Source of the DNA: Guillardia theta CCMP2712
Lineage: Eukaryota > Protista > Cryptophyta
NCBI RefSeq assembly: GCF_000315625.1
Contig: NW_005434525.1
Span: 69,447-133,446, forward strand
Length of the DNA stretch: 64,000 bases
Reading direction: 5' to 3'
Every line of letters begins with the position of its first letter. The stretch's first letter is position 1. Under the pieces are notes generated by a model. That model did no database searches. It was not told the origin of the DNA and saw only the letters and a program-made list of their open reading frames with translations. Shown in pieces: positions 13,226 to 63,857 of this stretch. The position numbers and the translations under genes were made by a program.

Positions 13226-14862
13226 TGTTTTCTGAGCCTCTGTACCGTACCGTAGTAGTACTACTGAGTCTGTACGGTAGTAGCTGGAAATTGGAAGCAG
13301 AATAGGTGAACGAATGGATGGTTGGCCCGCGCCGCGGCCGATGGCATTGAAAGCCATTCTGCAGTTACGATCCGTTACAATCATCACACAGGGAATTGAC
13401 CGGCAACCGCCTCCTCTAAAACTATTTTATTAATATAAGTATTTTTATTTGTCAGGCGGATCGTGACTCCATCACAGTTTTCCTCCTGACCCTACCCCCA
13501 CATTTCCCTCAAAATCAGGGGTACTTGAACATTTTGAAGAGTGCAAAAATACTTTTGACTACCCCACCCTTTCTCTACCAGTTCAATGAAGTACTCAAGA
13601 TAGTACAACCCCCTTCTGGTGTGGGAGATTCCATGGACTACCCCCTGGTCATAAATAAGGTTGAAGTTCTCCTGGGGAACGGACCCGTCCAATCACTTTA
13701 AGGCTACCTACCCCACCCTCCATCATATCCTGTGATTGATTTCAATTCGGAAACGCATTTGGAACCGGAAGACTTGAATATTTTAGATAACTTTCTCACT
13801 AAGTTTTGAAACTTTCATTGAATATTTGAAATTTTCTATGGAACTTCACCCTCTTTTTCGGAATTCCGGACACACGATCAAGGTCAAGCGACCGGGTGAG
13901 GGTGGTACAAGGGTAGGGTCCCAATTCTTGACGCCGCCCCCACATCAGAAAAGGTAGGGTGAATTTGAGAGAACTATAGGGGTGGTCAGACGGGGAGGGG
14001 GTGGGATCTAGGTGGGTGATGGGGTACCTGGATTTGAGGAGAAACGAAGAATGCAGATGGTCGGAAGAAGCGTGGAGGAGAGCAGTGAGAGGGAAGAGGA
14101 GGAGAGGAGGAGAGGAGGAGGGGAGGAGGGGAGGAGAGGATGAGTGAAATTATGTTGGGAATGTCAACATGAGACCACCAGGAATAGAGATGCCAAGAAA
14201 GATGGAGGGAAGTTGCGAAGGAAAGAGTCAACTCGAACAGTCGCTGAGTTGAGAAAGATGAAGGGACGGACGGCAAACCAACAGGTAGTCAGGCAAGAAG
14301 ACGAAGAATCGGACAGAATCGTTTGGACGAGAGAATCAATGTTGGTTGATAGCAATAGGAGAAGAGAGAATCAATGTTGGTTGATAGCGATAGGAAAAGA
14401 GAGAATCTATGTTGGTTGATCGCGATAGGAGAAGAGAGAATCTATGTTGGTTGATCGCGATAGGAGAAGAATTTTGGTGGAGTCGAGTAGACGAAGTGAA
14501 ACTAGGAGTTTTTCACTCGGACGTGGGTAGTATGGAAGGATGGTTGTGTGAGGAATGAAATGAAGTTGATTGCTTCGACGGAGTAGATGAATATCTGGAT
14601 TGAAATATAAAAATCACGATAGCAAAGATGTTGCGAGAAGATGCATTGATGACCTTTCATTCCTGTTGTTACTGAATGCACGTTGCTGATGTTGAGCTGA
14701 TACAATGTTCATGTTGTAGATTCATTAGTAGTTGGTATTTGCTGACATGACGAGATGTTTCAGGTCTGTGCCATGGAGCACTGGGAGTATACATCGAGGC
14801 TGTCTGGAAGTATTTGACTTCTTCTGAGAAATCGATCGTCGACTGTTGGCTTAGCTGTTGAC

Positions 14863-17517
14863 ATGCCGCTGCATTCTCTCCCGCGCTCCTTATGCCTCGT
14901 TGCCATCTTAGCTGCATCCGCCATGACATTCTTCTACAAGGACATGTACAGAGTGAAGCTGTTCACACAGTTTGTGCAGATGATCGCCGGATGTTTTGGA
15001 GCACTTATCTGTTTCCTCCGGCTGATGAAGGAGCGAGACATGTACTTGGAAGCTAAGCAGACGTTGCGGATCGCAGACGAGAGCCGCAAGCTAGTCCACT
15101 CGCTGATACCAGAGAATGTGATGACGAAGCTGGTGCATCATGGCAATGCTGGAGAATTCCTGGGTGCGAACATCCCCTTCTGCATCGTCATGTTCTGCTC
15201 TCTCGGCCCCCAGCACCTCCTCAAGTCCAAGACCTCTGCTGAGATCTTCGAGATCCTCGACCAGGTCTTCGAGAAGTTCGACGACGCAGTCGACCATCAC
15301 GGCATGTACAAGTATCAGAACGTCGGCGACTGGTACATCATCATGTGCCCTCGGGCAGCGAGGCCCTTCGACCAGAAGCTTCAGGCGGAGCCCTACCCGA
15401 GGAGTCACGTCCGGAGCATGGTCCACCTCGCCGCTGACCTCATCGGCATCGCCAAGAAGCATGATATCCAAGGAACAAAGCTCAACCTCAAGATCGGGAT
15501 GCACTGTGGGCCTGCAGCTGGGGCTGTGGTCGGTTCCCACAGAGCCTTCTACTGTGTCTACGGCGACACGACCAACACGGCAGCGCGCATGTGCAAGTAC
15601 GCGGCAGCGAACCAGATCCTGTGCACGTGCTCGTTCGCCAAGATCGCCGGGGGCTGCAAGGGGCTGCCGTTCGCGTTCGAGGCCAAGGGAATCATCTCAG
15701 TGAAGGGGAAGGGAGCTATGGAGCTGTTCGAAGTGAACGCGCGAGGCAGCGGCAACGTAGGGAAGGAGATGAAGAGGACCTTTACGCGCACGGTGAGCGT
15801 GCCGAACCCCTCGGAGAAGTGCGTCATGTTCAACAAGGAGCAGACGGTCCAGCTGGATGACATCAAGCCTACCTGGTTGGGATCCACCGCTGAGGAGGTG
15901 GCGGAGGAGACTGGGAGCAGCGGAGGACAGGGAGGGATCTCGAGCGACACGATTCCCTTCTGGACAAACTTCTCTGACTCGGATACTGAGGTCAGGTTCC
16001 TCCTTGATCAGGCGCGTGACCACTGGCTGTCCATCTCCGTTGGAGTGATTGTCCACGGATACGCCTTCCTAGCCGCCGTGGAGGACGCCATCTCAGCGCA
16101 GAGCTTGCAGCCCATTCACTACTTCACCCTCTACCTGCAGATTGCTTTGATCCTCGACTACTTCCTCTTCGTCCTCTTCTACATGATGCCGGAGCTTCAG
16201 TTCTGCCACAAGTTCGGTCACACGATCTTCTCGCTGCAGCTCATCGTCGCGGTCTCGAACGTCTTGGTCGGCGTCCAGTTTCGCCTGCTCCTCTGCTTTT
16301 ACTCCATCATCCAGTACTCTATCATTAACGTCGTTCTGACAGAATTCAAGAAGACCGACGCGGTCGCCGCCCTGATGTTTGTGGTGACTGCGCTGCTTCC
16401 CAGCTACAGGAGGGACCACGACTTCATTCTGCTCACCTCGTTGGCCGCGCTCACTTTGTCTCTCATCCTCACAATCTGGAAGTCCAAGTGCCTGGTGTAC
16501 AACGAGAGGGTTCGCTATCAGTACTACGAGTTCATCGAGCTGGAGCTGACCAGGATGAAGGAAGTGATCTACGACCTCGTGCCCTCCAACATCGTTCACC
16601 AGATGATCCGCAACACGCTGAAGCTTCCCTGCACCATGAGGAGAGCCGTTGTCCTCCAGCTCGACATCTGCAACTTCACAAGGATGTCGCAGGGAAGTTC
16701 AGCCATGGAGATCGCGCAGATGGTGCACAAACTGTTCTCCAGCTTCGATCAGGCGGTGATGAAGTACAAACTCTTCAAGATCGACACGGTCGGGGACGCC
16801 TACATCGTTGCTGGATGGCTGCCCTGCGACAGTGACTGGTCCATGAAGGAGGAGACGAGAGCTTCTTGCTCCTCCATTCTCAACCTCGCGCGCCTGATGC
16901 TGAGGGCTCTACGCAAGCATAACAGGGAGAGAGGAGGGAAGGAGGAGCTTAGCTGCCGTGTCGGCATAGCGGTGGGTCTGGTGGCGTCGGGGGTGCTGGG
17001 GAGGAGACACTCGCGGTTCTACGTGGTGGGGCAGGCGATGAGGGAGGTCGACCTGCTGGAGCAGACGGCCCTGATCAACAACGTTCACGTCAGTGACAAG
17101 TTCATGCACGGCCTCGGCTTCCTCCTCTCCTCCTCCTCCTCCCACCATCACGACGACCGCGGGAGGTCGCCGCTGTCGGAGAGAGCCAGAAACCGCTGCA
17201 GGAGCGTGTCTCCCGTGCGAGCTCGGGAGGTGGAGCGGCACAAGGACGTGAAGGTGGAGGTGAAGAGGTCGAGGGGACGGAGGAAGAGCACAGCACAGCT
17301 CGAGTCGTTCAACCAGACAGCATGGACGCTCGAGAAGGAGTACGGGTGGACATGCACGGACTCGCCGTCATCGTCGAGGTTCGAGCAGGCGGTGCGGGAG
17401 CATCGCTTCGAATTCACCAGGGACGTCGTGGAGAAAACGAGGAACCTTGACGCGCCGATGCAGACAAGCTACATGCTCTCTTGCCGCTCCCTCGACGACA
17501 ACCTCCAGGGCTCCTGA
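14863..17517 (+). CDS. Membrane class III adenylyl/guanylyl cyclase with two cyclase domains (TM-C1-TM-C2); true 5' end may lie upstream
   Basis: KYQNVGDWY..LKIGMHCGPAAGAVVG..YCVYGDTTNTAARM..ISVKGKG (C1); hydrophobic TM block; LDICNFT..KIDTVGDAY..CRVGIAVGLVASGVLG..FYVVGQ (C2). Confidence 0.9.
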   Translation: MPLHSLPRSLCLVAILAASAMTFFYKDMYRVKLFTQFVQMIAGCFGALICFLRLMKERDMYLEAKQTLRIADESRKLVHSLIPENVMTKLVHHGNAGEFLGANIPFCIVMFCSLGPQHLLKSKTSAEIFEILDQVFEKFDDAVDHHGMYKYQNVGDWYIIMCPRAARPFDQKLQAEPYPRSHVRSMVHLAADLIGIAKKHDIQGTKLNLKIGMHCGPAAGAVVGSHRAFYCVYGDTTNTAARMCKYAAANQILCTCSFAKIAGGCKGLPFAFEAKGIISVKGKGAMELFEVNARGSGNVGKEMKRTFTRTVSVPNPSEKCVMFNKEQTVQLDDIKPTWLGSTAEEVAEETGSSGGQGGISSDTIPFWTNFSDSDTEVRFLLDQARDHWLSISVGVIVHGYAFLAAVEDAISAQSLQPIHYFTLYLQIALILDYFLFVLFYMMPELQFCHKFGHTIFSLQLIVAVSNVLVGVQFRLLLCFYSIIQYSIINVVLTEFKKTDAVAALMFVVTALLPSYRRDHDFILLTSLAALTLSLILTIWKSKCLVYNERVRYQYYEFIELELTRMKEVIYDLVPSNIVHQMIRNTLKLPCTMRRAVVLQLDICNFTRMSQGSSAMEIAQMVHKLFSSFDQAVMKYKLFKIDTVGDAYIVAGWLPCDSDWSMKEETRASCSSILNLARLMLRALRKHNRERGGKEELSCRVGIAVGLVASGVLGRRHSRFYVVGQAMREVDLLEQTALINNVHVSDKFMHGLGFLLSSSSSHHHDDRGRSPLSERARNRCRSVSPVRAREVERHKDVKVEVKRSRGRRKSTAQLESFNQTAWTLEKEYGWTCTDSPSSSRFEQAVREHRFEFTRDVVEKTRNLDAPMQTSYMLSCRSLDDNLQGS

Positions 17518-17842: not shown

Positions 17843-19547
17843 CTAACGGATCCACATCCGAGGCTTGCCTGCCTCTGCCTCTCCTCGCTTTCCTTTCTTG
17901 TAGTAGAGCACTGCAAGCTGAGTCATCTTGCTCAGCGTGTTGGGATGGTGATCGCCCAGCAGCTCCCGGCACTTGGCGATGCTCTCCAGCAGGAGAGGTT
18001 CAGCTTCTTCCAGCTTCTCCTGTTCCACATACACACCAGCGAGGCTGTCCATGCACACAAGGAGCAGCGATCCTCCTCCTCCTAGCGCTGCCTCTCGCAG
18101 TCTCTTCATGCTTTCCAACAGCAGAGGCTCTGCCTCCTCCATCCTCCTCTGCCTCACATACAGCTTGGCGAGTGCGATCATGTCCTCTACCGTGTGCGGA
18201 TGGTCCTCCCCCTCCGCCGCCCGCACCCTCCTCAAGCTCTCCAGCAGCAGCGGCTCCGCCTCCTCGTACCTCTCCTGGCTCTGGTAGAGAGCTGCGAGGC
18301 TCCGCATACTCATCAGCATGTCCGGGTGGTCGTCACCGCCAGCGTCTCGAAGCTTCTTCATGCTGTCCTGCACCAGCCCCTCTGCCACCTCGAACCTTCC
18401 TTGCTTTGCGTACAGGGCGGCAAGAGACCTCAGGCTCCTCCTCGTGATCGAGTGCTGCTCACCGAGAGTTGCCCTGCTCGCCTCCACGCATCCCTGGTAG
18501 ACGCTTTCAGCGTCATCTTCTCTTCCTTGGACGACGTGGAGGCTTGCGAGGTTCAGCTGGTGGCTCAGAGCAAGGGCTCCATCCTCCTTCTCCCTCACTT
18601 TCTGCTCCTCCTCGCCCTTGTCAATGCACCTCTTGAGGACCGGCTCTGCTTCCTCGAAGCTTCCTCTGCTGAAGTAGAAGTCTGCAAGCCCGATCAAACT
18701 TTCCAGCGTGAGCTCCTCCCTGCCCACCCCCTCAAGAAAGATCTTGCACGTCTGCAGAAGGGGTTCAGCCTCCTCGTACTTCCCTTCGAGGACCAGCAGG
18801 ATCGCAAGCTTGCGGGCCAACTCCCTGCTCAGCTCGTCTTCTTCCCCAGTCTCCTCCTTCCTCTTCATGTAGCTCTCCTTGTACAGCTGCTCTGCATCCT
18901 CCAGCCTTCCCTGCATCTTGTACAGGTCTGCGAGCTTCATCCTTCGCTCCACCTGGTCTCCATCCTCTACCCGCAGGAGTTTTTCCTCGGCAGTTCGAAC
19001 GAGCCAGTCCCTCATTCGCTCCTGCACCAGCTGATTCATCCCTGCGATGCCGTCGACCTCCTTCCTGACCATGGCGAGGATAAGTTCCTTGTCCTCCTCC
19101 TCCGACGTCTCGCTCCTCTCCACGTCGATCTCTCCGATCATCTTCGTGTACGACTCAAGTGGCAGCTCCTCCCACAGCCTCTTCTCATCCTCTTCGCTCA
19201 TCGCCACCTCGAGCTTGCTTCCTGTCCTTGCTGTGAGGAACAGCTCGAAGAGACACCAGCTGCGCGCGAGGGGAAGGGGATGGTCCCAGGGAGTGAGCAC
19301 GAGCACGGTCCTCTTCGTCTCCGCAAAATTGGAGCTCCAGCCTTGCAGCGGAGACTTGGGAGACTGATGCTGGTTGATGCTGAAGAGATCAAACCAGAGG
19401 AAGGGAGAGGAGGAAGAGGAGCGAAAGTGCTCTTCAAGACTCTGCACCACATGCAGGAAGTTCTCCTTCCATGCGTGCGAGATAATAACTTGCGCTCGTC
19501 CCACTCCGCTGCTCCCTTCTTGCTCAAGCAGCTCACAGAATGAAACC

Positions 19548-19619
<72 letters not shown>

Positions 19620-19744
19620 CCCTTGCCGGTCATCTTCTTCAAATGTCGCTCACACACTTCTGCCGTGCTCAACCCCAGCAACGCGCTCTCTCCTCCGCAG
19701 CGCAAGATGAAGTCATGGAAGGCTTCTAGCCGAAGGCCGAGCAT
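17843..19744 (-). CDS. Kinesin-light-chain-type TPR repeat protein with an N-terminal HET/TIR-like 'SHAW' domain
   Basis: IISHAW..FLWFDLFSINQH..RSWCLFE followed by ~42-aa repeats LA.LY..QGRYEEAEPL....L.......G.DHP. Confidence 0.85.
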
Positions 19745-20613
19745 GGGGTAAGGGAGCGGCGCTGCAAGGAAAGAATCAGACGTTGACAGCCTGAGCGCGA
19801 GGAGGAAAGAGCGAAGGGAGAGCGATGAAGGGAAGGATAAGGATGAGGGGGAGGATAAGGAAGGATACTAGGAGTAGAAGGATGAGGGGGAGGATAAGAA
19901 AGGATACTAGGAGTAGAAGGAGAAGGTAAGGCATGGCATGGCAAGCCAAAGGGAGAGGAGAGGGCCAAGACAGAGGATACATGCCTGCCTTATCGTGCTC
20001 GCTGGTAGCGGGAGGCAGTGAGATAGCGCGAAAATCAGCGACGTTAGCAGCCGAGGAGGAGCAATGTGGAGGGAGCGAGGTGGGCGAGAGAGGACGAGGG
20101 GAAGGAGGGACGGCAGTCCACGTTGATCGTGATGATATACATGCACCCATTTTCTTCTTCCTGTTTCAAAAATTCCTTCTTGTGAATCGCAACCAAGAAA
20201 GGTTTTTGCAATGATATTGCCTTTCTGTTTCGTTCTCCGTTTTGGGTCGAATTGTACTACTATCCTCTTTTCTCTGTTCTTGTTGTCGTGTTGTCTTGTT
20301 GTCTTGTTGTCTTGTTGTCTTGTTGTCTTGTTGTCTTGTTGTCGTCCAATCAAAGTTACGCCATGGAGTAATCCGCCCCTTGGTTTGCACCTACAAAAAA
20401 CAGGCTTGTAACTTACATCGAAACATGTGTAACGGAAAATTATACCGGTTCCTGTGTAAGTAAAGATATCAGTTAATTTCTGGGACAGCAGTCGGTAAGA
20501 TAGGGTTGGTCCTCTCTGTCTTGAAATTCTCTTCTTTTCAAGAGGACAGTAGGGAATCCTTTCTGTCAAGTGAACAGCCTGCTGAACGAGGCCGTCACGA
20601 GCCTCTTCGAGGA

Positions 20614-22019: not shown

Positions 22020-25000
22020 TCAAGGTAGATCATCAGGGTTGTCAATCCCTAACAGTATCTTTGACTGCAGCCGGCTGATACGATCAAGAATGCTGTCGAG
22101 CAGGCGCTTTTGACGATGTAACGACCTGAGAAACGGGTGCTCCACCTGGCCCACGCATGTCAAGGCCATGTCAACCACAAGGAAACAAGCAACCTCGTGA
22201 AATACGACGCCTCCCCGGTAAACCCTCGCTTGCACTGCTGCCACCAGCGCCTCCAGCCCTGACACATGCAAACCACCATGGTCCTTCTCTTTCTGCTGTT
22301 GCTCTTGCTGCTCCCTCTTCGCTTCAATCTTCAAGGGCTTCGAGAATGACGCGAGAAACTCCCAGTCGACCTTGACCTCTTTGGCAGCTTCACTTGTCTC
22401 CTCTAGCTCCGCAATTCTCTTCCACCAGTCTTCACCCTCCTTGTCGCCCTTCCAGCCTGACTCTGACTCCAAGTCCTTTGAGTCTGGACTTGCTTCATAC
22501 AGCACCGGCACCAAGACAGGGATGATGTACTTCCCTGCCTTACACGCCCGAGCAAACTCCCTCCTGCAGTTGCCGCTCTTAACGTACTTGTCGCTCATGA
22601 AGACCACAAACACCTCGCAGCGAGACACTCCCTGCTCCATCTTCTGCATGTGATCTTCCCCGTGGTCGATCCCTCCCTCCACGTCGAACCAGCACTGCAG
22701 GCTCGTCTGCTCTTCGATCCGCCGCTTCACCTCCCTCACCATCTTCTGCGTCGAGTTGTCGTGCCCCCAATTGTAGCTCAAGAACACCTGAGGCGGCGTG
22801 ACGTCCAGCACGTCCATCTCCCTCTGACATTGATTGCAGTAAATCTTAGCCGTTAGATCGCGAGCGAGCATGCTCAAGCACGTGGGTCGGCTGAAGAAGT
22901 GCGGGACTCTCTTGTCCTTCAAGCACGACGGACACGGGGAGCTCGAGTCATTGAAAGCCAGCACCTCCTTCACGGTTGTCGTATGACCCCTTGTGCAAGT
23001 GATTGCTTTGATCATGATCTTTTGTTTGATGACATCTTCTTGCTCCAGCTCTTGCTGCATGTCTGTCATACCATTGGTTTCTTTGTCCAGTGCTTCCTTG
23101 ATCTCCGACGGATCGAACCTGCCCACGGCTCTAACGCCTTGTGAGGCAGGTTGAGACTCAGACCTATCATGCAAGCAAGCTTGGCACAGAAGCTCGTTCT
23201 GACTGGTGACATCGTACAAGTCTTCGAAACTTCCCCGTCCCTGATGAAGCTTCTTGATGATGCCGTCGTACAACGTTCGCATAGATTTTTCATATTCGGA
23301 TACTTTGTCTTTCGATACTTCATCTTTCTTCTTGTACTGATGGAAGATCCTGTATCGCTCCATCCCTTGTATCTCCCGCGGCCACCACTCGTTGAACCTG
23401 TTCCTCGGCTTGATGTGCTTGTCGTAGTAGTCTGTCAATACGACGGGGATGATAATTGCTTTGCTAGCTGTCAATCTGTTCCATGGCTTGCTGAAGCTAC
23501 TTTCTCCTTGCATGGCTCCCTGCTCATCAACACACTCTGTCGATATACACAAGATGTTCACGAGACATTCATCACCAGCATCTCCACGTTCGTCACATGG
23601 ATGAATCTGACAAGTAAGACCTAGAGGGAGGTTCTCCGCCTCGTAAAGCTCCTTCACCTTTCTTTCAATATCCAGCCCACATGCTCTTGACCTCTCTCCT
23701 TGCGTGAAGATCCCAACCTGCACGGCCTCCTTGCCTGAGCTCTCCTCGTTGCTTCTCCTTCGCTTCATCCCCGGGAAGAACGCCTCGAGTCGCCTCAAGT
23801 CCTCTTGCAAGTTCTCGATCTGCTGCCTCGTCGACGCGTCAGCCCTCAGCACGTGCTTGTCATTGTCTTCCCGCCAGCTCACCAGCAGCGTCCGGCCCCA
23901 GCCCTTCATCACCGCCATAGAGCCGCTGCAGTCTACCTCAAAGTGTCGAGCAGCGCACAGCACGACCAGCCTGTCGATGAAGCCCGCGGGGAAGATGTTG
24001 TACTCGCGCTCCACAGATGCGCACAGCGACTGCTTGTCCTTGTCCGTCACTGCCCGCTTGTGCTCATGCGTGAACGACGGGATGATGCCGGGACACAGCA
24101 GCTCTCTGCTCTTGTTGTCTGTATCCTTCAAGTCCTTCATCCCCACGCCCAGGAAGTGCGCCAGATCGCAGCCCCGAAGCAGAGCCACCGCCTCCTGCAC
24201 CTCCACATGGCGCTTGATGAAGCCTACCTCTTCCGATCTTGATGTCTTGTCTGTCTTCGCATTGCGCCAGAAGTCGCTGTCTCGCTGGGGCCACAGGTAC
24301 TCCAACATGTCCTCGTCTATGATACCCAGGTGTAGCAGCTTCTTCGTCTTCTTGGACTTGGTTGGGTCCTGCTGGAAGCAGTCGAGTAGGTGCTCCCAGT
24401 CATGTCGCATCACGCCCTTGAACACGTCGATCATCCACACGGGATCGATAAAGACCGTGTCCTCGACGGAGTACTTGCCTTGGTCTCTCTTGCTTTCATC
24501 CGCACTCAGCTCATGACCGAAGTACTTGAGCACGCCCATGTCGTGCAAGAAGCTCGTTGCCACCTTTTGCTCCTTTTCGTTGACCCCTGACTCTCTCAAC
24601 ATCTCCTTGTACTCCTCTACCTTGACGTACGAGACAGGTTCTGACTTACGCTTCTCCACAGCCTCTCTCAGTCTCAGATAAGGTCCAGGGATTTTTTCCT
24701 GCCACCACAGCAGCTCTTTTGCAGTCTTGCACACAGATTGCCGCAGCTCCTTCACTCCCTGTCCCTCAAGACAGTTCACCCGGAAGCTCTCGCCTCCATT
24801 GATAACGTGCAACGGCAGGATGTTCTCGTCTTCCTCCTCTGCCATCTTCTTCAGCTCCTCTTCCACACATGCCTTCACCTTCTCACACTGATCCGTCACC
24901 TCGCTCTCCCCGGCAAGATCGATGTGCGTTACTACGAGCAACACACTCGCTCCCGGCACTCGCGCTTGCGTAGCTCGCAGCCATGTCGAGATCATCTTCT

Positions 25001-25946
25001 TCAGCTCCTCCATGCCTCCCCCTCCATCCTCTTTGCTCTCTTTGTCTCGCTTCACCCTCACGCTCCAAACCAGCAGGTACAAGGCCCGCCTCACGATGAA
25101 GTACTGGTTCGTCTTGGCGTAGATCTGCTGCCCCCCGAAGTCTATCACGTCAAACGTCAGCCCGTCAGCGTAATCAGGCTTCCACTCGTGCAGGTCTATC
25201 CCGATCGTCCTCCTGTCTACCTCGATCTTGTCCGCCTTGTCCTTGTCTGACCTCAGAGCTCTCAGCACGCTCGTCTTGCCTGCCTCTCCGTTGCCTATGA
25301 GGATGAGGTTGATCCGCTTGTTCGCCTCGCTGTCTCTCTTGACACTCTGCAGGTACGTGAAAGCAGCTGCCCCTCCCTGACTGGCGATCTCAGGGGGAGG
25401 CAGCTGCAGGCTGACGCAGCTCTCACACCTGACCTCCTGCAGGCTAGACTCCATGCTGCAGAGCTCGTCCAAGGGAAGGCGGGAGAGGCTGGGGTTACCG
25501 GACACGTCGATGACTTTAAAAGCGACGCCGAGCTTGGAGATCCAGCGAGGCAGGCTCTTCATCCTCAGGTCTCGTATCACATATCGTTTCATCCTATCTG
25601 TCCGCAAAGACATGTTGAGCGTGCCTTCCTCGCTGTTGTAGCAGCTCCCAAGCTCCCCGCCCGACAGGAGCTGCTTCACGTCTTCGACAGCAGAGGTATC
25701 TATCTCTTGCATCCCGAAGATATAGTGGCACTTGACTAGGTCCAGTCTCTGGGCAAATGGCTTCCCCACGTTGTTGACGTGCTCGCGGACCTTCTCGATC
25801 TTGGCGATGGCGTCCTGCCTACTGGGTCTTGACGATACAAGATCTTGCTCAAGGTTGTGCACGCAGGAACGTCGATCCTTGCAGTGCTGGCACATGCGTT
25901 CTTGCCTTTGATCTTCAGATTCATCGTCGTAGTAGCAAACGCAGCA
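22020..25946 (-). CDS. ROCO protein main exon: Cys/His motif, LRR, Roc GTPase, COR, Cys-rich region, C-terminal TIR_2; gene probably extends upstream to ~27389 via micro-exons
   Basis: LQLPPPEIASQG; P-loop GNGEAGKTS; TIGID; DFGGQ; VVTHID; COR FLHDMGVLKYF..VFIDPVW; TIR VFLSYNWG..WFDV..NCRREF..IIPVLV. Acceptor TTTTTTTCTAG at 25947 opens the frame with CCVCYYDD upstream of the listed Met. Confidence 0.92.
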   Translation of the reverse strand, partial: CCVCYYDDESEDQRQERMCQHCKDRRSCVHNLEQDLVSSRPSRQDAIAKIEKVREHVNNVGKPFAQRLDLVKCHYIFGMQEIDTSAVEDVKQLLSGGELGSCYNSEEGTLNMSLRTDRMKRYVIRDLRMKSLPRWISKLGVAFKVIDVSGNPSLSRLPLDELCSMESSLQEVRCESCVSLQLPPPEIASQGGAAAFTYLQSVKRDSEANKRINLILIGNGEAGKTSVLRALRSDKDKADKIEVDRRTIGIDLHEWKPDYADGLTFDVIDFGGQQIYAKTNQYFIVRRALYLLVWSVRVKRDKESKEDGGGGMEELKKMISTWLRATQARVPGASVLLVVTHIDLAGESEVTDQCEKVKACVEEELKKMAEEEDENILPLHVINGGESFRVNCLEGQGVKELRQSVCKTAKELLWWQEKIPGPYLRLREAVEKRKSEPVSYVKVEEYKEMLRESGVNEKEQKVATSFLHDMGVLKYFGHELSADESKRDQGKYSVEDTVFIDPVWMIDVFKGVMRHDWEHLLDCFQQDPTKSKKTKKLLHLGIIDEDMLEYLWPQRDSDFWRNAKTDKTSRSEEVGFIKRHVEVQEAVALLRGCDLAHFLGVGMKDLKDTDNKSRELLCPGIIPSFTHEHKRAVTDKDKQSLCASVEREYNIFPAGFIDRLVVLCAARHFEVDCSGSMAVMKGWGRTLLVSWREDNDKHVLRADASTRQQIENLQEDLRRLEAFFPGMKRRRSNEESSGKEAVQVGIFTQGERSRACGLDIERKVKELYEAENLPLGLTCQIHPCDERGDAGDECLVNILCISTECVDEQGAMQGESSFSKPWNRLTASKAIIIPVVLTDYYDKHIKPRNRFNEWWPREIQGMERYRIFHQYKKKDEVSKDKVSEYEKSMRTLYDGIIKKLHQGRGSFEDLYDVTSQNELLCQACLHDRSESQPASQGVRAVGRFDPSEIKEALDKETNGMTDMQQELEQEDVIKQKIMIKAITCTRGHTTTVKEVLAFNDSSSPCPSCLKDKRVPHFFSRPTCLSMLARDLTAKIYCNQCQREMDVLDVTPPQVFLSYNWGHDNSTQKMVREVKRRIEEQTSLQCWFDVEGGIDHGEDHMQKMEQGVSRCEVFVVFMSDKYVKSGNCRREFARACKAGKYIIPVLVPVLYEASPDSKDLESESGWKGDKEGEDWWKRIAELEETSEAAKEVKVDWEFLASFSKPLKIEAKREQQEQQQKEKDHGGLHVSGLEALVAAVQARVYRGGVVFHEVACFLVVDMALTCVGQVEHPFLRSLHRQKRLLDSILDRISRLQSKILLGIDNPDDLP

Positions 25947-27369
25947 CTAGAAAAAAAACAGCCGCAATCCAGAGCATGCCAGCAAAGACCCGAACGGCAA
26001 AATACATGTCAGCCAATCATTCTCTGACCGCATTATAGCAGATGCAACTTACGTACTATTAGGCCCAAGTTCCATCCAACCGAGCAAAAGCAAAAGAATT
26101 TGCAAAATGAAATGTCAGCCAATCGTTCCCTGAGCACATCATATGACATGACACTTACGATCTACGAAGGCGAATTTAATCCATGCAAGCAAGGAAAAAC
26201 CAGGAATTTGCAAAATACATGTCAGTCTATCGTCCCCTGAGCGCATCATAGCATATGCTACTTACTCGCTATCAGGCCCAAGTTTCATCCATCCGAGCAG
26301 AAGGCGAAGGAAATTTGCGAAGTACATGTCAGCCAATCGTTCCCTGACCGCATCTTTCATCATCGTCACTTACCCGCTATACCGCCCCATCCACAGTACA
26401 TTCGAGCATATACCGACACATACACAAAATAAATGTCAGTCCACTCGTCCCCTTGACCGCATGATTTCATAATCATCACTTACCGACTGTCCGGACAAAT
26501 CAACAACCCATCCGATGAAAAACCGAGAAACAAACGAAAAATGTCAGCCAATCGATCCCTGACCGCATATTTTGATCAAGATACTTACTCCCTATCCGAT
26601 CCAGCAACCCATCCATCCGACACCAAACACAGACAAGAAGCAAAACCAATGTCAGCGAAACATTCCCTGACCGCATCATAGCAGTTATGCTACTTACTCG
26701 CTATGAAGCCCAAGTTTCATCCATCCAAGCAAAAGGCGAAGGAAATTTGCAAAATACATGTCAGCCAATCGTCCCATGACCGCGTATTTCATTATCATCA
26801 CTTACTAACTGTTGAGACCCATGATCAATCCATTCGAGCAAAAACAAAGGAAATCGCAAAAATAAATGTCAGACAATAATCCCCTGACCGCATCATATGA
26901 TATGATACTTACTCCCTATGAAGACGAATTTAACCCATGCGAGCAAGGAAAAACCAGGAATTTTCAAAAACATGTCAGTCAAATCATCCCCTGACCGCAT
27001 CATATGATATGACACTTACTTCCTATGAAGACGAGTTTAATCCATCCAAGCAAGGAAAAACCAGGAATTTGCAAAACAAACGTCAGTCCAATCATTCCCT
27101 GAGCGAACGGTTCCTTACGTAGCAGTACTTGGAGGATCCATAATGATCTTCTTCAAGCTTCGAGCAGGTCTTGCACTTTCCATCGGCTCCAGCTTGAAAA
27201 GTAGACTGTTGTAGAATATCAATCCAATCGATCCCGCCCATCATAGCATATGCTACTTACTCGCTATCAGGCCCAAGTTTCATCCATCCGAGCAGAAGGC
27301 GAAGGAAATTTGCAAAATGAAATGTCAGCCCAATCGCTCCTTGAGCATATGCTGCACAGACATGCTTAC
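25947..27369 (-). repeat. ~107-bp degenerate tandem array interpreted as homologous introns separated by 3-nt micro-exons
   Basis: Each unit on - strand: GTAAG...CTGAC...YAG|NNN|GTAAG. Micro-exons at 27020-22, 26913-15, 26806-08, 26698-700, 26589-91, 26484-86, 26374-76, 26266-68, 26159-61, 26053-55, plus 27261-63. An 87-nt exon lies at 27119-27205. Confidence 0.8.
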
Positions 27370-28004
27370 CGCCTTCCGAATAACAACATGGCAATTCACG
27401 GCAGAACGTAAAACACTCAAAGTCAGGTGACGCCTACTGGAAGCTATTCAAATTACGCATTTTGTGCTGTCGTTGGTATTAGGATCGACCACGATCTGGA
27501 GACACACAAGTCAGAAGGTCAAAAAAAAGTGTTAGGAGGAAGTGAAGGAGCCGCCAAGAAAGGAGTTGAATGATGGAAGGATCAGATGCGGGGGAGCAAA
27601 GGAAACATCTTCATCATCAAGCATGTCACTCAAGGTAACAGCATCTCATCGCTGCTGCTCCTTGCCTGGCATTTGTCGCAGTTGTACGGCATTGCGGAGG
27701 TTGAGAACAGAGGGTGGGGTAGGTGGAGATTTGGGGATGTAGGCAAATAGCGGGTAGGGGTAGTCGAATGAAGGAGGGAGGCAGGGGACTCGAATCATGC
27801 CGGTGAGAACGATTCGATTTTATAAGTGAGACACTAGTAGCATTCAACGAGGGTGAGAGAGCGAAGGTGTTTGAGGTGGTACAACCAAACGTTGCACAGG
27901 TGCTCGGGTAGGGTGAGCAAGGACAAAGGTTTTTTTGCCAGGGCTCCACCTTTACCTCCACCACCCACCCCCATTTAAATGTTGACATCTCGACTGGCTC
28001 GACA

Positions 28005-28331
28005 AAGGTTTTTTTCGCACGGGTAGGGTGCACAACCTTTCAATTAAGGAAAGTATTGAATATATTTATCAATCTTTCAAAATTCGTGTGTATATTGAAG
28101 AAGATTTTGAAATCAAGGATGAAAGGAACGCAGTTCCGGCATGTTTTCCCAAGCGACCCCACTAAAATTAGTAGTAACCCACCAGCTCCTTGTCCCCCCC
28201 TTCACCTCAACCTCGACGGAAGGTTTTTTTTCGTACGGGTAGGGTGGACAATTTTTCAATCTTAAGGGAGATATTGAATTATATTGATCAATCTTTCAAA
28301 GATTGGTGTGTATATTGAAGAAGATATTGAA
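28005..28331. repeat. Two copies of a ~110-bp AT-rich direct repeat; possible non-autonomous element remnant
   Basis: aaggtttttttcg.acgggtagggtg.acaa...gtgtatattgaagaagat.ttgaa at ~28005 and ~28220. Confidence 0.6.
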
Positions 28332-28710
28332 CCTCACTTTAATTTGAAGTTTATTTTAACTTGCCCCAGCCAACTCGAAGGCTCTGGAAAGCGAAAATGC
28401 TTTTGAATCACGCGATATCAGCGCCTGTTGTGTCTTGTTCCTGCTCCTTGGGTCTCCCAACCTGCTCTTCAACTTCCTCCCATCCCCCCCCTCCTTCCTC
28501 TTGTCCCGGCTGCTTCCCCCCCTCTTGTCCCGGCTGGCCCCCCCCCTCTTGTCCCGGCTGCCCCCCCCCCTCTTGTCCCGGCTGCTCCCCCCCACACCTG
28601 TCCTCCTTCCATCGCCATGCTCCTTCTTCCTCTTGCTCTTGCCCCGGCTCCTCCTTCCATTGCCATGCCTCTCCTTCCTCCTTCCCCGGCTCTTCGTCCT
28701 CTCCTTCCTC

Positions 28711-54100: not shown

Positions 54101-56341
54101 ATGCTTCGAAACATGTGGCCAATATCTATTGTGAACCCTGACGAGATCGTGCAGTACCGTACCTCCAGCTACCTCAAGAGGCAGACGGAAGCTGCAACGA
54201 TGCCGTCATCAGCCGAACTGATGCGGAGACTGGATGAATTCGCAAGGCAGAACCCCAAAAGCAGGACGAGCAAAGCTCTGAAAGCAAAAGAAATTTCCTT
54301 GGAAGCCTTAGCCGAAGCCATCAGTCAGACATGCAGCTTTGCTGAACCCTCGTCACTGGAGAATCCGAAAGGGCTCAGGCAGTGGGGTGACGATGTCAAG
54401 CAGTGGTACCTGTCAGAGTTCCAAGCTGACAGACAAAGGCAGATGGAGGCCAGATCATATGATGATCAGGGCACCAATGTGCAGACGATTACCATGAAGG
54501 TACTTGGGATCCCTGCATACTTTTCCAGACAGGTGGAAAACTTATGCCTCAAGCTTGAAGAGCAAGGCTTGATCGTCGATCAGACGCAAGATAGCAGGAG
54601 CCTGATCTTCAAGGCTCCCTTGAAGCCTGACCTTGTGCAGGCAGCGGAGATCCCAGCAGTGATCACCTTTGTCCGCAATGAGGCGGCTGAGAAACTCTGG
54701 AAAGGAGAAGGTACCTTCAAGGTGGCAGGCAGGAGGATTCTAGCAGTGAACCCAGCAGCCAACCCACCGATCTCGTTCAAGATGCGGCCAAAGAAGGAGA
54801 ACATGAGCAGAGTTGGAATCCTAGCTGAGGTGGCCCAACTCCTGATGCTCAACGATTCGAGCACAGGTGACATATGTGAGATCTACAGGCAGCTATGCCT
54901 GAAGCAGGGATTAGCGATCATTGATCTGATCCCAAACGCGGGAATGACAGTGAACCTCCCCCCCAAGAGGAACCTGCCGCCAAAGAAGGTGTTCGCTGCG
55001 GTAGGAATAGAAACAGTCAACCAGAACAGAGAGGTCGACTGGATCGCAACGTGCTCGAGCCTTGAAGCAGCGGACATCGTTCTTCAAGCATTCGATCGAC
55101 ATGGAAAGGATCGTGCAGGAGTCACTTTGGGACTGGTCTCAGAGAATGACAAAATACTGAAATGGTTCTCAGTGCAGATGGAAGCAACGGCGCTGCACAA
55201 GAATATGAAGAATGCGGTGCGACAAGAGGGCACGGCAATGGCAACGGGAGCAGAGATGCTGTACTCGGTACAAATCTCCTCTCCTGTGCCGTCAGGGAAG
55301 TTCTCCCGAAATGAGATCGAAAAAATCTGCGCAAGTGACGAAACGGGCAGAGCAAAAGTCATCCGAAACATTCGGAGGGCTGTCGCTTGCTTTGATCCAC
55401 AGGTGGAAAAAGATCTCCAACGGATCCACCTCCAATGCGATCCAGAAACAGGGATCTGGGATGGGTCTGGTATCATTCTCCGGCTACGCAGTGAAAGTAG
55501 TGCAAGAAAGATGATGGCTGAATTCCCCACACAGCTCCTCTGCTGGCAAGGCACAGTTGAAATCCAAACGACAGCGAGCAGTCTGAACCTCCAAGTGTCG
55601 CCTCAGGCAACTCGCGATCAGTCTAACCCTGAGGCCAGGTCACAAGCGACGGGGACCAGAGCAGAAGGAACTGTGTGGAAAGAGATCGAGCTCAGTTCCA
55701 TTATCAATGAAACAAACCTCCCAGATGCGGGAACGGACGTGGTCGTCGAAGAACTTAAGGAAACTATTGCTGACGTAACTAGGAGCGAGCTGCAACAGCA
55801 AGGACAGCTTCAACTCCATCTTGATGACGCGGTGCAAGAGATGGCTCCGGAGAGCCCAGGAAATGCATCCTTCCCCACGCTACAAGAGTGGGCTGATAAG
55901 GGTGCCAACGCGGCAGAGAATGCCGTGAGCAAACGACTGCGTGAACGAGTCAGGGTGATTGCAGGCAAACATACGTGGAAGGTAGCGAAGCGCAAGAACA
56001 GCGCTTTCGCACCAAATGAAGAGAAGCCATTGAAAACTGATCTCCTCTTCATTGCTTTGAATAAATTCCTGGAGGCAACGGCGCTCTCCCTCGTAGGAAT
56101 GCTGGGAGATAGAAACGAATTGAAATTTGTTTTGAGCAGTGAGCTACAGATGAAAGACGCTCGAATGGAAGCGGAAGAGATGTCGCTTGACTCCTTCCCA
56201 GCAGCGGAGGAGGAGGAGGAGAGGGCAGGTGGGACAGTGGGCACCAGGGCGTGGTGGAATCAAGCAGAAAGAGACAAGAAGGTGAGAAAAAGAATGACAA
56301 AGAAAATCCAAAAAACAGAAAAATACAAACATTCGACTTGA
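54101..56341 (+). CDS. Family B ORF1 (746 aa)
   Basis: LIFKAPLKPDLVQAAEIPAVITFVRNEAAEKLWKG aligns with family A IMWKAPYRPEIASADEIPVTVSFLRNAQAEKLWQG; NSAFAP..LLFIALNKF aligns with GSAFSP..FLFIALSKF. Confidence 0.85.
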   Translation: MLRNMWPISIVNPDEIVQYRTSSYLKRQTEAATMPSSAELMRRLDEFARQNPKSRTSKALKAKEISLEALAEAISQTCSFAEPSSLENPKGLRQWGDDVKQWYLSEFQADRQRQMEARSYDDQGTNVQTITMKVLGIPAYFSRQVENLCLKLEEQGLIVDQTQDSRSLIFKAPLKPDLVQAAEIPAVITFVRNEAAEKLWKGEGTFKVAGRRILAVNPAANPPISFKMRPKKENMSRVGILAEVAQLLMLNDSSTGDICEIYRQLCLKQGLAIIDLIPNAGMTVNLPPKRNLPPKKVFAAVGIETVNQNREVDWIATCSSLEAADIVLQAFDRHGKDRAGVTLGLVSENDKILKWFSVQMEATALHKNMKNAVRQEGTAMATGAEMLYSVQISSPVPSGKFSRNEIEKICASDETGRAKVIRNIRRAVACFDPQVEKDLQRIHLQCDPETGIWDGSGIILRLRSESSARKMMAEFPTQLLCWQGTVEIQTTASSLNLQVSPQATRDQSNPEARSQATGTRAEGTVWKEIELSSIINETNLPDAGTDVVVEELKETIADVTRSELQQQGQLQLHLDDAVQEMAPESPGNASFPTLQEWADKGANAAENAVSKRLRERVRVIAGKHTWKVAKRKNSAFAPNEEKPLKTDLLFIALNKFLEATALSLVGMLGDRNELKFVLSSELQMKDARMEAEEMSLDSFPAAEEEEERAGGTVGTRAWWNQAERDKKVRKRMTKKIQKTEKYKHST

Positions 56342-59300
56342 TAGGGGAGATCCCCTGGAGTCTACGGGAAAACAATAAAGAGTACGGAGCAGCGGCGCTG
56401 CTCAACTCAGGAGAAGATGGATTTCTCTCTGAGGACGTTATGGAGGCATTAATCGTTGAGGTAAACCGAAATTTAGAACCAGCGGAAGACAGATTTGAAA
56501 TAGCATGGCTCCAAGGCACGAGGTATGCCAGCGAGCAAACTAGAAACCAATTTGGGCTGCAGAGAGGGACCATTGTTCTCCCGAGAATAGTAGCGGGTTT
56601 GAGAGATCAGGAGGGAAGGGCAAGGAGAGCAAAGCGACTGTTAGCCGGAGCAGATCAACCATTATTATTCCCATGCGTAGAAAACGGCAATCATTGGATC
56701 CTAATCGTGGCAGATGTCAACACAAAAAGAATACACATCGTCGACTCGCTCAACACGGCCGGGGAGAGAGACCTGGGGACAGTCAGAAGTCAAAGGGATG
56801 CACAGTTTCAATTGGGGGGCGCACAGCGAATGGACCTAGCATCACTCGTGGCGACGATCATCACCGAGGCAATTAGCGACCAACAAGAACAAGACGACAA
56901 GGCATGGAGGGCATGTGTGTCAACGGGACTGCAACAAACGGACGGCTACAACTGCGGAATTTTTGTACTACTGCATCTGCTACTGATCGCAAAGACACGA
57001 AAGCAGACGCAACAACACGATATCTTCAACATAGGTAGGCAACAAGGCGTCCCGCCACACCAACAATGGCTCGTGAGAACAAGGCACCTGCTGCTGGATG
57101 GGCTCTGGGGAGGGGGTCTAGAACAAGTGCACATGCGAGAAACGATCCAATGCATCTGCAGAGCGTTACAACACGCGCAAGAAACAGGCTACAAGGAATG
57201 GCAAGCAGCAAAGCTCACCATGGAACGTAGACCTAACCAGATGGAAAGGCGAGAGAATGGCCAAAAACGCGCAGGCGAGCTTCAGATGACCCAGGTAGCC
57301 GAAGATGCATGGCTAGAGGAGAGATGGAAAGACGGAGCGGCCCTGCAAATACCAGACAGGTCAGCACAGGGGGACATCCTGCCATACCCCCCTCCACCAC
57401 CTCCCGCCCCATGCCCCGTCTCTCCACTCCAGCCACCTTCCCCCCCACCAGACATGCACGCAGAGACAAACTCGAAGCACGACAAGGAGACTAGGGGGGA
57501 GGAAGAGCCATCAGCCCCAACGAAGATGCAAGAGAGGCACGCGTCTCACCTTCAATGGGCATCGGAGGCGGAGGAGCAAATCCTAACAGCAAGCAGCAAC
57601 GCACACGAGGCTACCACCGATAGGTCAGTGCACTCAGCATGGGTGGAAACCCACAAGAAGGACAACGCTCCAGGCAACATCATCTCTCAAAATGTCAATG
57701 GATGCAGTCAATTCGTGCTGAAACACATCCTGGCATATTTGATTGAGAAGTATCATCCATCTATTGTCATGTTGCAGGAAGTCAGGGTGGGGCGTGGTAA
57801 GAAAAAGGAAACAGATCTCCGAATGATGATCAAGAAAGAATGGGGTGTTTATGACCAAGGGTACAGGGTTTGGGAGAAAGGGTAAGAGTGATCTACGCCT
57901 TGTGATACTGGCGCATGCTGACCTTCTCCCGCGCCCCCCCTCCTCGCCAAATGGTACAGCATTGGAGGGGGCACACAGACAAAAAATACAAGTTTTACAG
58001 ATCTCACGAAAAAAAGAAAACATACTTTTGTGTAACATTCATATGCCAGTGGCGACGGAGGAGGGGGAACAAGACAGCATGTGGAAGGCGCTAAGCCAGA
58101 TGCTCAAGCCAGACCCAAACATCAAGCTCATCATCATCGGAGGCGACTTCAATGCATCTCGACAACATCCAGAGATCCCCATGAGAATAGGATACGGAAG
58201 CAATTCGAGTGTACACCGTGCAGATGAGAAAATGGAGCAAGTCTTAAATGAGCTTGGGCGAGTCCAGACAGTCACCTGCGAGAAGATGTGCAAAAGCAGC
58301 ACACACTTCACCTTCTCCACATGGTACAAGCAGGGTCACCACCAAGCGAAATTGGATCATATCTTTGCTTTCCATCATCCATCTCGCACAGTAAGCCTGA
58401 TATCGCAGACCGCAGAAGACTGCATCATAGGAGCTGCCGTCGACCACAGAGCACTCGTAGTGAATGTGAGCTCGCTCGATGCTGAGGGGGAGCAAGCCAT
58501 CCCAAAGATTGAAATTCTCCCGCAAAGGAGAGATCGAGAAGCAATTCCTCGACGAAAGAAAAGGGTGGTCGAGATGGACAAGTTATCAGGAAGATTAGGT
58601 GTAGAATGGGCAATAGCACTGGATGAGAAGATAACAGCGGCAAAAGCCCTACACCAAGACTTGGACATTCTCGAACTGATAACAACAGCCCTCCCCACCA
58701 AGGAAATCCCCCTACGAGGCTCAGGCGGTAAACGACATGCATCTAAGATTCAGATGGATCTGAAACGGAAACTCAAGCAACTTCAAAGGGATCTGAGAAG
58801 CGCATCAGAAATTCCAGACTTTATTGATCGGGCACACAAGGAGTCAAGCTTACACGCAGAAATAAGAGAGAATATGACCAAATTCAAAGAGATCTGCGCA
58901 GCACAGGACCAAGAGATATTTCTGAAAACATGCGAAGAACGAAGAAGACGCTTGGGGACGATAGGGAGTAAAGAGTCTCAAAATGCAATGGGCAAGAAGT
59001 CAGACTTTAAGCCCAAAGCCCCAATGCTGAGTCAACTGTCAGAGAAGTGCCACCCAAATACAATCGAACTTACGTCATGGAGGGATCTCCAGCCAGCGCT
59101 GCAACAGCCGGAGACAGCATATCTTCAAGAACTGAACCCGTTAATCGAAACATTCTTACAAAGCAGCTCCAAAGAATCAAGCAAAACCTTTTGGAATGCA
59201 AGACATCAAACCATGCTACACGTCGAGACTCTCGGGGCGAGAAACCAGGCAACACAAAAGCTGTCCATAACTCTGGCGCCTGCACACGCAATCGTACCCA

Positions 59301-62300: not shown

Positions 62301-63857
62301 GCAGCAAACTTTTGGGGAACAGGGAATCGTTGCCTGATGAAAACGTTAGAGGAGCTATGGATACTCGTCAAGCACACATTCCCAACATACCCCAGAGCTC
62401 AGCTTCATGACAACATCCTCCCAACGTATGAGGAGATGTGTAACCAACGAAGGGGTCAGATCCAGCCGCGCAGCGATCACCAAGGCGGAAGGCATTTCAC
62501 AGCAGCTATTGAAGGAGACGTCACACAGAGCAGAAAAAATAGAACCATGCGAATAGGGTATGTTCTCCAGCAACAAGCGACGGCAGCAGGAGGAGGGATG
62601 AAAATCAATGGGAAATGCAGCATCATTCGAGCGAATACAATTGCAATTGGCTTACTGTTCCAACATATCCTCGAGGAAGGGATACAAATCAAGAGGGGAA
62701 ATCAAGTCACAATCATGTATCAGTCCACCCGCTTTCACCGCTTCATCACGAATACATTACGCATTGATACCATGCGATACGAAGATGAACTGCTGGAGGA
62801 CCTACATGATCGATTACTCACTTGAATGAAGAAACTCGAGGGGAGAGGAATCAAGATCCGACTTCAATTAGCAAAAGAATCTGACCGACACATCCAAGAG
62901 GCAAAGGAGATGGCCAAACAAGCAAAACAAACATTTGCCTCGGGATGGGAGAAAGCGATTTATGACAGCGCAATGGAGTTCACCATCGCAGGAGAAGACA
63001 GTCCTACATCAGGAATGGATAGATTGAAGAAGTGGGACTATATAATTCGACAACAGGCAATGACTGCGAGGATTCGAGCGGGAGACCTCACCTTGACGGA
63101 GAAATTCATGCTTGAAGTACATGTGGGCAGAAACCTACTCGCGAAGGCGTTTAGAGTATGCCAAGGTTCATTCACACGAACAGCAATTCAAGCAATCACC
63201 TTCTCAGTACCGACGAGGAAGAAGCTCTTTCAATGGGGGAAGACTAACTCATCATGCTGCCCCCACTGTCCAGACCGAGAAGAAACCTGGGGGCATATTC
63301 AGCTGGCATGTCGGCAGTTTCAAGCAATGATCCAACAAGCACACAATCAAGTCATGAAGAAGATCAAGGTAAGACTGCAGCAGAGTTGGAGGAAACAAAG
63401 GCTACAGGTCACTACATGGTGGGAAACTCCAATGCGCATCGTGATGGAAGCGATGGGGACTTCAATGCACCAAGAAGGACAATGGATACCAGACGGTTGC
63501 TGCTACTTTACAAACATCAAACGCATCGTCATCATTGAATTCGCAAGGACATCGGAATATGACGGAGTCGAACACACAAGCCTGGAATGCCTGAAGAAGA
63601 AATTTCAGGAAAAAGAAGAGAAATATGCCGATCTACGAGCAGAAATCATAGCTCTGCTCCCTGACCATGAAGTTGAACAAGCAACATTCATAGCAGGAGT
63701 GAAAGGATCGATCATGGAGAGGGAATGGCATGAGAATTTCAGGAGGCTAAGGGTGGATGACACGGAATGGGAAAGCATCAAGACAGCAGCAATCAAGCAA
63801 CTGCTGGAGGTGCAACACATGCTATGGACGGCAAGAAGGGGAAGCGAGTCGACCTAG
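56251..63857 (+). pseudogene. Family B ORF2/pol, disrupted: Ulp1-like cysteine protease, APE endonuclease, RT, degenerate RNase H, CCHC knuckle, restriction-like endonuclease
   Basis: NHWIL..VDSL..QQTDGYNCG; SQNVNG, LQEVR, GGDFNA, LDHIF, VDHRA; KAAGMD, LLPK..NQRPI, QEGFR, LDF, PQGSPASP, FADD, KYLGI; CPHC..HIQLAC, AHN, IPDG, IIEF, KEEKY. Frameshifts near 57860 and 59780-59930 (including a 37-bp duplication); TGA at 62823 where copy B1 has TGC. Confidence 0.92.

Follow-up and report, generated by a model that had tools for sequence, protein, structure and literature searches.

Ten consecutive exons of three bases each, separated by homologous introns, precede the main exon of a ROCO-TIR gene of the cryptophyte Guillardia theta CCMP2712, and the triplets are confirmed as real exons that are joined in RNA in genomic order. 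The gene is encoded on the minus strand of contig NW_005434525.1 (assembly GCF_000315625.1), within a stretch of 64,000 nt (positions 69,447-133,446), here called the window, to which all coordinates refer. We consider it probable that this run of one-codon exons is spliced in order, and that recombination of cassettes gives each Roc-COR-TIR paralog its own linkers in a predicted ligand-sensing region. Described gene structures come nowhere near ten consecutive 3-nt exons. In this gene, which belongs to a cultured and sequenced alga, RNA displays runs of two, four and three micro-exons that were spliced in order.

Structure of the micro-exon array

A pattern scan of the window for YAG-NNN-GTAAG displays 11 units on the minus strand, from 27263 to 26053. 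In the notation used here, site A denotes the position between exons 2 and 3, and site B the position between exon 3 and the main exon. One unit triplet lies at site A (27263-61) and ten lie at site B (27022-20, 26915-13, 26808-06, 26700-698, 26591-89, 26486-84, 26376-74, 26268-66, 26161-59 and 26055-53). These are the same places and the same triplets as in the original prediction, which had reported the pattern in ten of ten units plus an eleventh at 27261-63; a twelfth exon, GCG at 27372-27370 with an AAG acceptor, had been overlooked there. The micro-exons total 12, ten consecutive ones at site B and two at site A, each of 3 nt and in phase 0. In 2000 dinucleotide shuffles, such units number 0.016 on average and never more than 1, versus the 11 observed, and the looser GTRAG pattern finds 8 further matches in 64 kb, all of them scattered singletons. 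An isolated CAG-TCG-GTAAG on the plus strand (20492-20494) is probably due to chance. In gene order the site-B triplets read GAA, GGA, TTA, CGA, GGA, TCG, CGG, CGA, ATC and TAC. None of the listed triplets is a stop, as had been claimed before; with 12 triplets, this would occur by chance with a probability of about 0.56 and carries little weight alone.

The 12 homologous introns, one at site A (27369-27264) and 11 at site B (27118-25947), are 96-107 nt long and begin with GTAAG. In all 12 of these introns, the branch-point-like motif CTGAC, correctly noted before as lying far from the acceptor, is situated 33-45 nt from the donor and 61-66 nt upstream of the acceptor. Between CTGAC and the acceptor the dinucleotide AG does not occur in a total of 681 nt, where base composition predicts about 23 occurrences, and the reverse dinucleotide GA occurs 31 times in the same 681 nt. 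Outside the array (window positions 1-32,000, both strands), none of 105 CTRAC motifs, which represent a chance background rather than verified introns, has its first AG at 61-66 nt. The one ordinary intron of the gene (170 nt) is unlike the array introns, with CTGAC 19 nt from its 3′ end. No Rfam family was found for the repeat, the array-core pattern has 0 matches in metagenome contigs, and there is no RNA fold shared among the 12 introns (z from -2.2 to +1.7). The introns 4 and 8, which are retained in RNA (see below), belong to the least structured ones, with z values of +0.8 and +1.7, but the spliced intron 9 also has +0.8, and no weight was given to this difference.

Gene model upstream of the main exon

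All features of the gene are on the minus strand. Exon 1 (27666..27692, 27 nt) contains the start ATG and encodes MPYNCDKCQ with the first CxxC motif, an N-terminus that is also found in P0051 and P0053; these transcript-derived UniRef proteins match the exon plan exactly, with other linker residues. It is followed by an ordinary 170-nt GC-AG intron (27496..27665), which is part of the model and is removed in a paralog contig of the X1 set (joint 27479/27678). Exon 2 (IVVDPNTNDSTKC; 27457..27495, 39 nt, phase 0) is given by the gene model and by transcript-derived proteins. Intron A of the model (27373..27456, 84 nt, GTAATT...AAG) introduces an in-frame stop if kept. It is often retained (X1 record 7, P0043) and is removed in the X2/X5 loose end and in P0051. 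Micro-exon A1, GCG (Ala; 27370..27372), is based on paralog loose ends of X2 and X5, both of which read from the end of exon 2 into GCG and then GTAAG, and on KC-A in P0051. The possibility that 27495-27370 forms a single 126-nt exon with a premature TGA, as in a pseudogene, is ruled out by this exon-2/GCG join of a paralog and by the open reading frame of P0051.

An array-type intron of 106 nt at site A (27264..27369; model and unit alignment) leads to micro-exon A2, CGA (Arg; 27261..27263), which was identified by pattern scan and repeat comparison as the centre of a 75-nt repeated tract. After a truncated array-type intron of 55 nt that comprises the 5′ half only (27206..27260; model and unit alignment), the modelled exon 3 (27119..27205, 87 nt) is symmetric and encodes a C-x2-C-x6-H-x6-C module, which is predicted to bind zinc. 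The site-B array (25947..27118) consists of 11 homologous introns and 10 three-base exons, derived from the scan and, for exons 2-10, from X1 record 6 (see below). The introns 4 (26701..26805) and 8 (26269..26373) of this array contain in-frame stops and are retained in an RNA contig. The lengths of introns 4, 8 and A are divisible by 3, and yet all three have in-frame stops inside.

From the ATG at 27692 through the main exon, all exons are in phase 0 and the full model contains 0 stops, which bears out the earlier claim that both exons flanking the array are in phase 0. The start exon had previously been left open, because the ATG at 27389 gives a phase mismatch; the start is the ATG at 27692 instead, which together with the 170-nt GC-AG intron and the 39-nt exon removes this mismatch.

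Splicing of the array in RNA

Four runs were compared with the window: one run of raw reads (X21), with only 18 reads, and three contig sets (X1, X2 and X5). The contig sets were taken as RNA because depth is zero at 27,901-28,400 and highest in the main exon, and because canonical introns are missing. X1 record 6 (351 nt, word depth 228.7) displays 0 differences over 26266-26377 and over 26697-26808 (112 nt each), ranges that include the retained introns 8 and 4. Its joint 26808/26913 corresponds exactly to intron 3. The joints 26377/26697 and 25951/26266 enclose the predicted 4 letters and 1 letter, respectively, and a script confirmed that the layout of the predicted product reproduces every position and every between-letter of the record. 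Hence, X1 record 6 reads exons 2 and 3, the kept intron 4, exons 4, 5, 6 and 7, the kept intron 8, and exons 8, 9 and 10 joined to the main exon. Introns 3, 5, 6, 7, 9, 10 and 11 are removed while the triplets are kept. In this record nine of the ten site-B triplets are joined in genomic order, and 7 of 7 junctions connect neighbours. Past exon 2 the record has 58 more letters, which suggests that intron 2 is retained as well, at least in part. A contig is an assembly path and not one molecule, and each join block is spanned by 31-letter words; the splicing support for this copy comes from one contig of one run, and contigs drop rare forms.

The original prediction had expected the product KYCY-EGLRGSRRIY-CCVC from full splicing. 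Triplets 2-10 are indeed joined in this order, and a fully spliced form of this copy is not among the joints listed for the four runs. Three outcomes had been named as refuting it. A direct join of exon 3 to the main exon (27119 to 25946), which was to be the constant form, is not among the joints listed; transcripts begin upstream of the array, and not downstream; and the array is spliced instead of being retained as a whole, with splicing being incomplete. The retained introns 4 and 8 of this copy and the site-A intron 27264-27369, retained in a paralog, belong to one subtype, which precedes CGA. This subtype may represent the slow step of splicing.

Linkers in paralogs

The linkers of the present copy are AR at site A and EGLRGSRRIY at site B. 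P0051 and P0053, as well as contigs of X1 and X5, carry ATGTHPSV and GGR instead (8+3 codons); the site-A residues ATGTHPSV are found in an X1 contig as in P0051, and the GGR contigs (depth 877.8 in X1, 50.6 in X5) have 6 differences in 83 nt of exon 3. In P0043, a linker of 14 codons (AGHWFSEHFSYKPG) connects site A directly with the main exon, and exon 3 is absent. Contigs of X2 and X5 read RFGR, then unspliced GTAAG, and an X1 contig has ...SVRN before the main exon. P0056, a G. theta model, has no residues at site A and shares its N-terminus with X2 record 13 and X5 record 18; in these two records site-A residues are likewise absent, and the spliced 5′ part is followed by a site-B array that is still unspliced. 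MANDSFCSFQ of P0055 was not counted as a linker, as it may be intron read-through.

Differing or shorter linkers were assigned to paralogs because of the substitutions in the flanking exons of their contigs. Paralogs share the array introns: the database model P0002 begins with MYFAIR, apparently an in-frame reading of the homologous last intron, and P0056 continues into the counterpart of intron 1. The linker codons of the paralogs are presumably 3-nt exons as well; this is observed in two loose ends, for the final codon that precedes an unspliced GTAAG. Taken together, the transcripts and proteins display flanking exons that are 93-99% alike next to linkers of 0 to 14 codons that are wholly different and have little in common, which points to an array that recombines faster than the rest of the paralogs.

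Main exon and predicted protein

The main exon (22020..25946; ORF and Pfam) comprises 1308 codons without a stop. It encodes a CCxC...CxHC cluster, a short LRR-like stretch, Roc (residues 214-343), COR-A (420-555), a Cys-rich segment and TIR_2 (1054-1159). The Pfam scores are 46.1 bits for Roc (cut-off 27), 41.7 bits for COR-A (cut-off 35.3) and 63 bits for TIR_2. Roc is directly followed by COR, the P-loop GNGEAGKTS is intact and the frame is open, as in members of the ROCO family. The main ORF is predicted to encode a GTPase, based on the P-loop and the Pfam Roc match. The segment NCRREF resembles the WCxxE catalytic motif of TIR domains. From its set of domains, the ROCO-TIR protein is a putative immune-type receptor. 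Pfam lists no LRR match in the protein, and the LRR-like stretch lies within the single main exon. Two to four LRR-like segments before Roc are displayed by distant environmental ROCO relatives (L014 1724-4732, L018 1338-3680, L020 5355-8156), and L014 apparently has a repeated Roc-like region as well.

The closest proteins are from Guillardia theta (88, 80 and 69%) and Hanusia phi (about 60%). There are at least 8 genomic copies of the main exon on different contigs, shorter models included. All 8 retrieved genome-based models of the main exon are without the true N-terminus and start at the internal MCQHC or just before it; models of the Roc-COR-TIR family thus have a blind spot in annotation. 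The micro-exons contribute 12 of about 1370 codons, and the array accounts for less than 1% of a large protein. By eye, the N-terminus MPYNCDKCQ does not contain a hydrophobic signal stretch.

No Pfam family was found for the C-x2-C-x6-H-x6-C module of exon 3. The module is also present in P0056 and in P0058-P0062, environmental proteins among them; its alignment retained 7 of 9 matches, with P0054 and P0057 dropped as unrelated repeat proteins. Homologues of the Cys module elsewhere also have variable linkers. The module occurs twice in the unnamed environmental proteins P0059 and P0062, and P0060 and P0061 appear to represent this symmetric exon, read through into the intron on either side. 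The AlphaFold model of P0051 has a mean pLDDT of 54.8, with values below 50 for residues 1-71, and Foldseek found 0 matches for this model at E 0.001. The N-terminal 95 residues, used as a query for short proteins, retrieved none, and the Atlas gave no usable match. Among 18 distant ROCO loci from metagenomes, none has the array, and none extends to a homologous Cys/His N-terminus. A general three-donor pattern in viral contigs was dismissed as chance (13 loci with 1 match each, 0 with the branch-point layout).

Recombination between array units

Alignment displays the array units as mosaics. The two intron halves that flank a micro-exon are linked with each other (rho 0.33, p 0.019, 10 site-B units; rho 0.27, p 0.032, 11 units including the one at site A), and the linkage of the halves within one intron is weaker (rho 0.16, p 0.17, 9 units). 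These statistics are modest, with n of 9-11 and a split of the units chosen by ourselves. The longest exact repeat, of 75 nt, joins the two sites (27313-27239 = 26318-26244) and spans the CGA at site A and exon 8 at site B; this identical tract is a recent one. Linkage across the exon together with the 75-nt tract points to an exchanged unit that is centred on the codon. Cassettes that are 84-87% alike carry GAA, GGA and ATC. The triplet columns reach 1.87, 1.69 and 1.31 bits, versus a mean of 0.71 bits, and these values are attained by 0, 1 and 17 of 101 intron columns; such variability of the triplets could be due to drift. Exchange breakpoints are likely to fall into the conserved core around the branch point.

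Based on this dataset, we hypothesize that the unit of growth, loss and swap would be a cassette composed of an intron half, the codon and an intron half. The introns would be removed singly, a 3-nt exon being presumably too small to hold acceptor and donor complexes at once. A branch point set 61-66 nt back, together with the AG-free zone, would make space available and lead the scan to the following acceptor. Under such one-by-one removal, RNA in a partly spliced state would accumulate. Unequal crossover or conversion within the GCGGTCAGGG...CTGACAT core would add, delete or replace single codons without a frameshift, and exon 3, which is missing from P0043, would be lost in a crossover between the two sites. 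By analogy, the variable linkers may tune the binding of a cytosolic sensor whose signals would pass through the Roc GTPase and the TIR domain. Such a role would be consistent both with the Roc-COR-TIR layout and with the comparison with brown algae (see below). More tentatively, and with somewhat less than even chances in our estimate, the array may represent a system of diversification of a receptor loop at codon resolution, in which exons consist of one codon, introns serve as recombination arms, residues are edited between loci and perhaps skipped in mRNA, and the distant branch point is part of a dedicated design by which serial 3-nt exons can be spliced. The present copy would then be the first such array with RNA proof. 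Both the handling of serial 3-nt exons by the spliceosome (order, branch-point distance) and intron-mediated recombination as a form of one-residue protein editing become testable in this gene.

Alternative explanations

The array may be the product of neutral, minisatellite-like expansion in a recombination-prone chromosome end, or a splicing brake that lowers output. A unit that stays in frame within a flexible linker would be tolerated, the variable linkers of homologous Cys modules elsewhere fit this picture, and telomere-like repeats are located 10 kb away. Retention is common, as seen for introns 2, 4 and 8 here, for intron A in X1 record 7 and P0043, and for intron 1 in P0056; in X2 record 13 and X5 record 18 the array is unspliced although the 5′ part is spliced, and introns 4, 8 and A, all multiples of 3 in length, have in-frame stops. 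However, the halves of the 12 introns are only about 50-90% alike, and yet all 12 preserve the splice signals and the AG-free zone, which argues for selection for the splicing of each intron. In addition, the triplets vary more than the intron columns, and one transcript of a paralog has its introns fully removed and an open frame across its 8+3 linker codons. We regard this explanation as unlikely.

In the combinatorial splicing that had been considered originally, the ten codons could be skipped in any combination, and a single gene would yield numerous isoforms of the linker. All exons are symmetric and in phase 0, the 1024 possible skipping patterns would give 656 distinct peptides, and the LRR exons of brown-algal ROCO genes are alternatively spliced (PMC11378527). 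This claim is not supported by the RNA, since 7 of 7 junctions of this copy join neighbours and the other linkers belong to paralogs. The GGR form ends with CGC, a triplet that is absent from this array, and its 6 differences in 83 nt show that it is not a skipped form of this copy. The AG-free zone and the uniform GTAAG donors favour the next acceptor, and a survey of 65 eukaryotes, G. theta among them, found retention in excess of skipping in nearly all (PMC6142364). Contigs drop rare forms and could hide skipping, which would be compatible with ordered splicing of recombined cassettes as well. Regular skipping as the source of the different linkers appears unlikely.

As to the origin of the introns, the original prediction had left the choice between tandem duplication and a stack of introner-like elements. 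The introns are tandem-duplicated homologues, and the insertion of mobile introns one codon apart into a pre-existing exon is very improbable in our view. Homologous introns of about 105 nt would be expected in this case, too. However, eleven insertions exactly 3 nt apart would be needed, linker lengths of 0-14 codons in paralogs would not result if a fixed exon had received the insertions, the linked intron halves are those on either side of an exon and not those of one intron, and the core motif has 7 matches in the array versus 1 elsewhere in 64 kb.

Finally, a satellite within one long intron, or a recursive (zero-exon, stwintron-like) intron whose triplets never enter mRNA, would agree with the 107-bp repeat called by Tandem Repeats Finder and with database models that skip the array and start at a downstream Met, but it is already contradicted by the triplets present at RNA joins, in line with the lack of a direct exon-3/main-exon join among those listed, of an Rfam family and of a shared RNA structure, and is hardly credible.

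Relation to known systems

One of the closest systems is found in brown-algal ROCO genes with their shuffled 72-nt LRR exons (Zambounis et al., PMC3341825; Teng et al., PMC11378527). Both systems concern ROCO genes of algae, with symmetric exons at the N-terminus, where the ligand is presumed to bind, and a recombination hot spot in paralogs that are otherwise near-identical; an immune role is proposed and not proven. In brown algae, each unit encodes an LRR of 24 residues in phase 2, and shuffling and alternative splicing affect whole repeats. In the Guillardia array, in contrast, the unit is one codon in phase 0 and it is the intron that is conserved and recombines; the variation affects a linker between Cys/His modules, and a TIR domain forms the end of the protein. 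The variable exons of the Guillardia gene, being of 3 nt and phase 0, hence do not belong to the 72-nt phase-2 LRR type. Neither Guillardia nor cryptophyte occurs as a word in PMC11378527.

Micro-exon genes (MEGs) of Schistosoma have exons of 3 or 6 to 81 bp, mostly 15 bp, with introns of 0.1-5 kb, and encode secreted proteins (10.1101/2023.06.21.545858). They are described there as runs of 10-20 very short, mostly symmetric exons that are overlooked by automatic annotation and thought to be a source of protein variation. The Guillardia gene shares with them the presence of at least ten very short symmetric exons (10 consecutive plus 2). It differs in that its introns are homologous repeats of 96-107 nt instead of long introns, and in that micro-exons make up little of the protein, for which no signal peptide is evident.

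That 3-nt exons can be spliced is known from isolated cases. In Coprinopsis, 26 genes contain 27 exons of 3 nt (bioRxiv 10.1101/2024.05.10.593147), a 3-bp exon is reported in Drosophila hth (PMC7392893), and for vertebrate microexons steric hindrance was proposed to make one flanking intron leave first (PMC10250204). Known exons of 1-3 nt occur about once per gene between unrelated introns, whereas the Guillardia gene has ten consecutive ones with introns that are copies of each other. Recursive splice sites and stwintrons keep no exon bases, in contrast to the Guillardia triplets, which are kept at the joins. The available text of a review of non-canonical splicing (PMC13149111) has no passage on such arrays. 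Full-text literature searches, judged mostly by title and the start of the abstract and covering few subscription journals, gave neither runs of one-codon exons nor cryptophyte ROCO-TIR genes; within this searchable literature, the earlier impression that no equivalent had been described still stands. The array is real and supported by RNA, as an extreme of micro-exon structure and of exon-array diversification.

Genomic neighbourhood

Two further ORFs of the window lie beyond the 3′ end of the ROCO-TIR gene. A TPR-repeat ORF (17843-19867, minus strand; TPR_10/12, NPHP3-type) may be another sensor-type gene, and an ORF on the plus strand (14818-17517) encodes an adenylate/guanylate cyclase. 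On the other side, the region 33,100-64,000 contains blocks of TTTAGGG-type repeats beside 19-bp and 76-bp tandem repeats and recurring ORFs; the blocks end in ORFs for a Ulp1 protease (56191-57885) and a reverse transcriptase (59853-62825). This region looks like an array of telomere-inserting retrotransposons, which, if true, would place the ROCO-TIR gene near a chromosome end.
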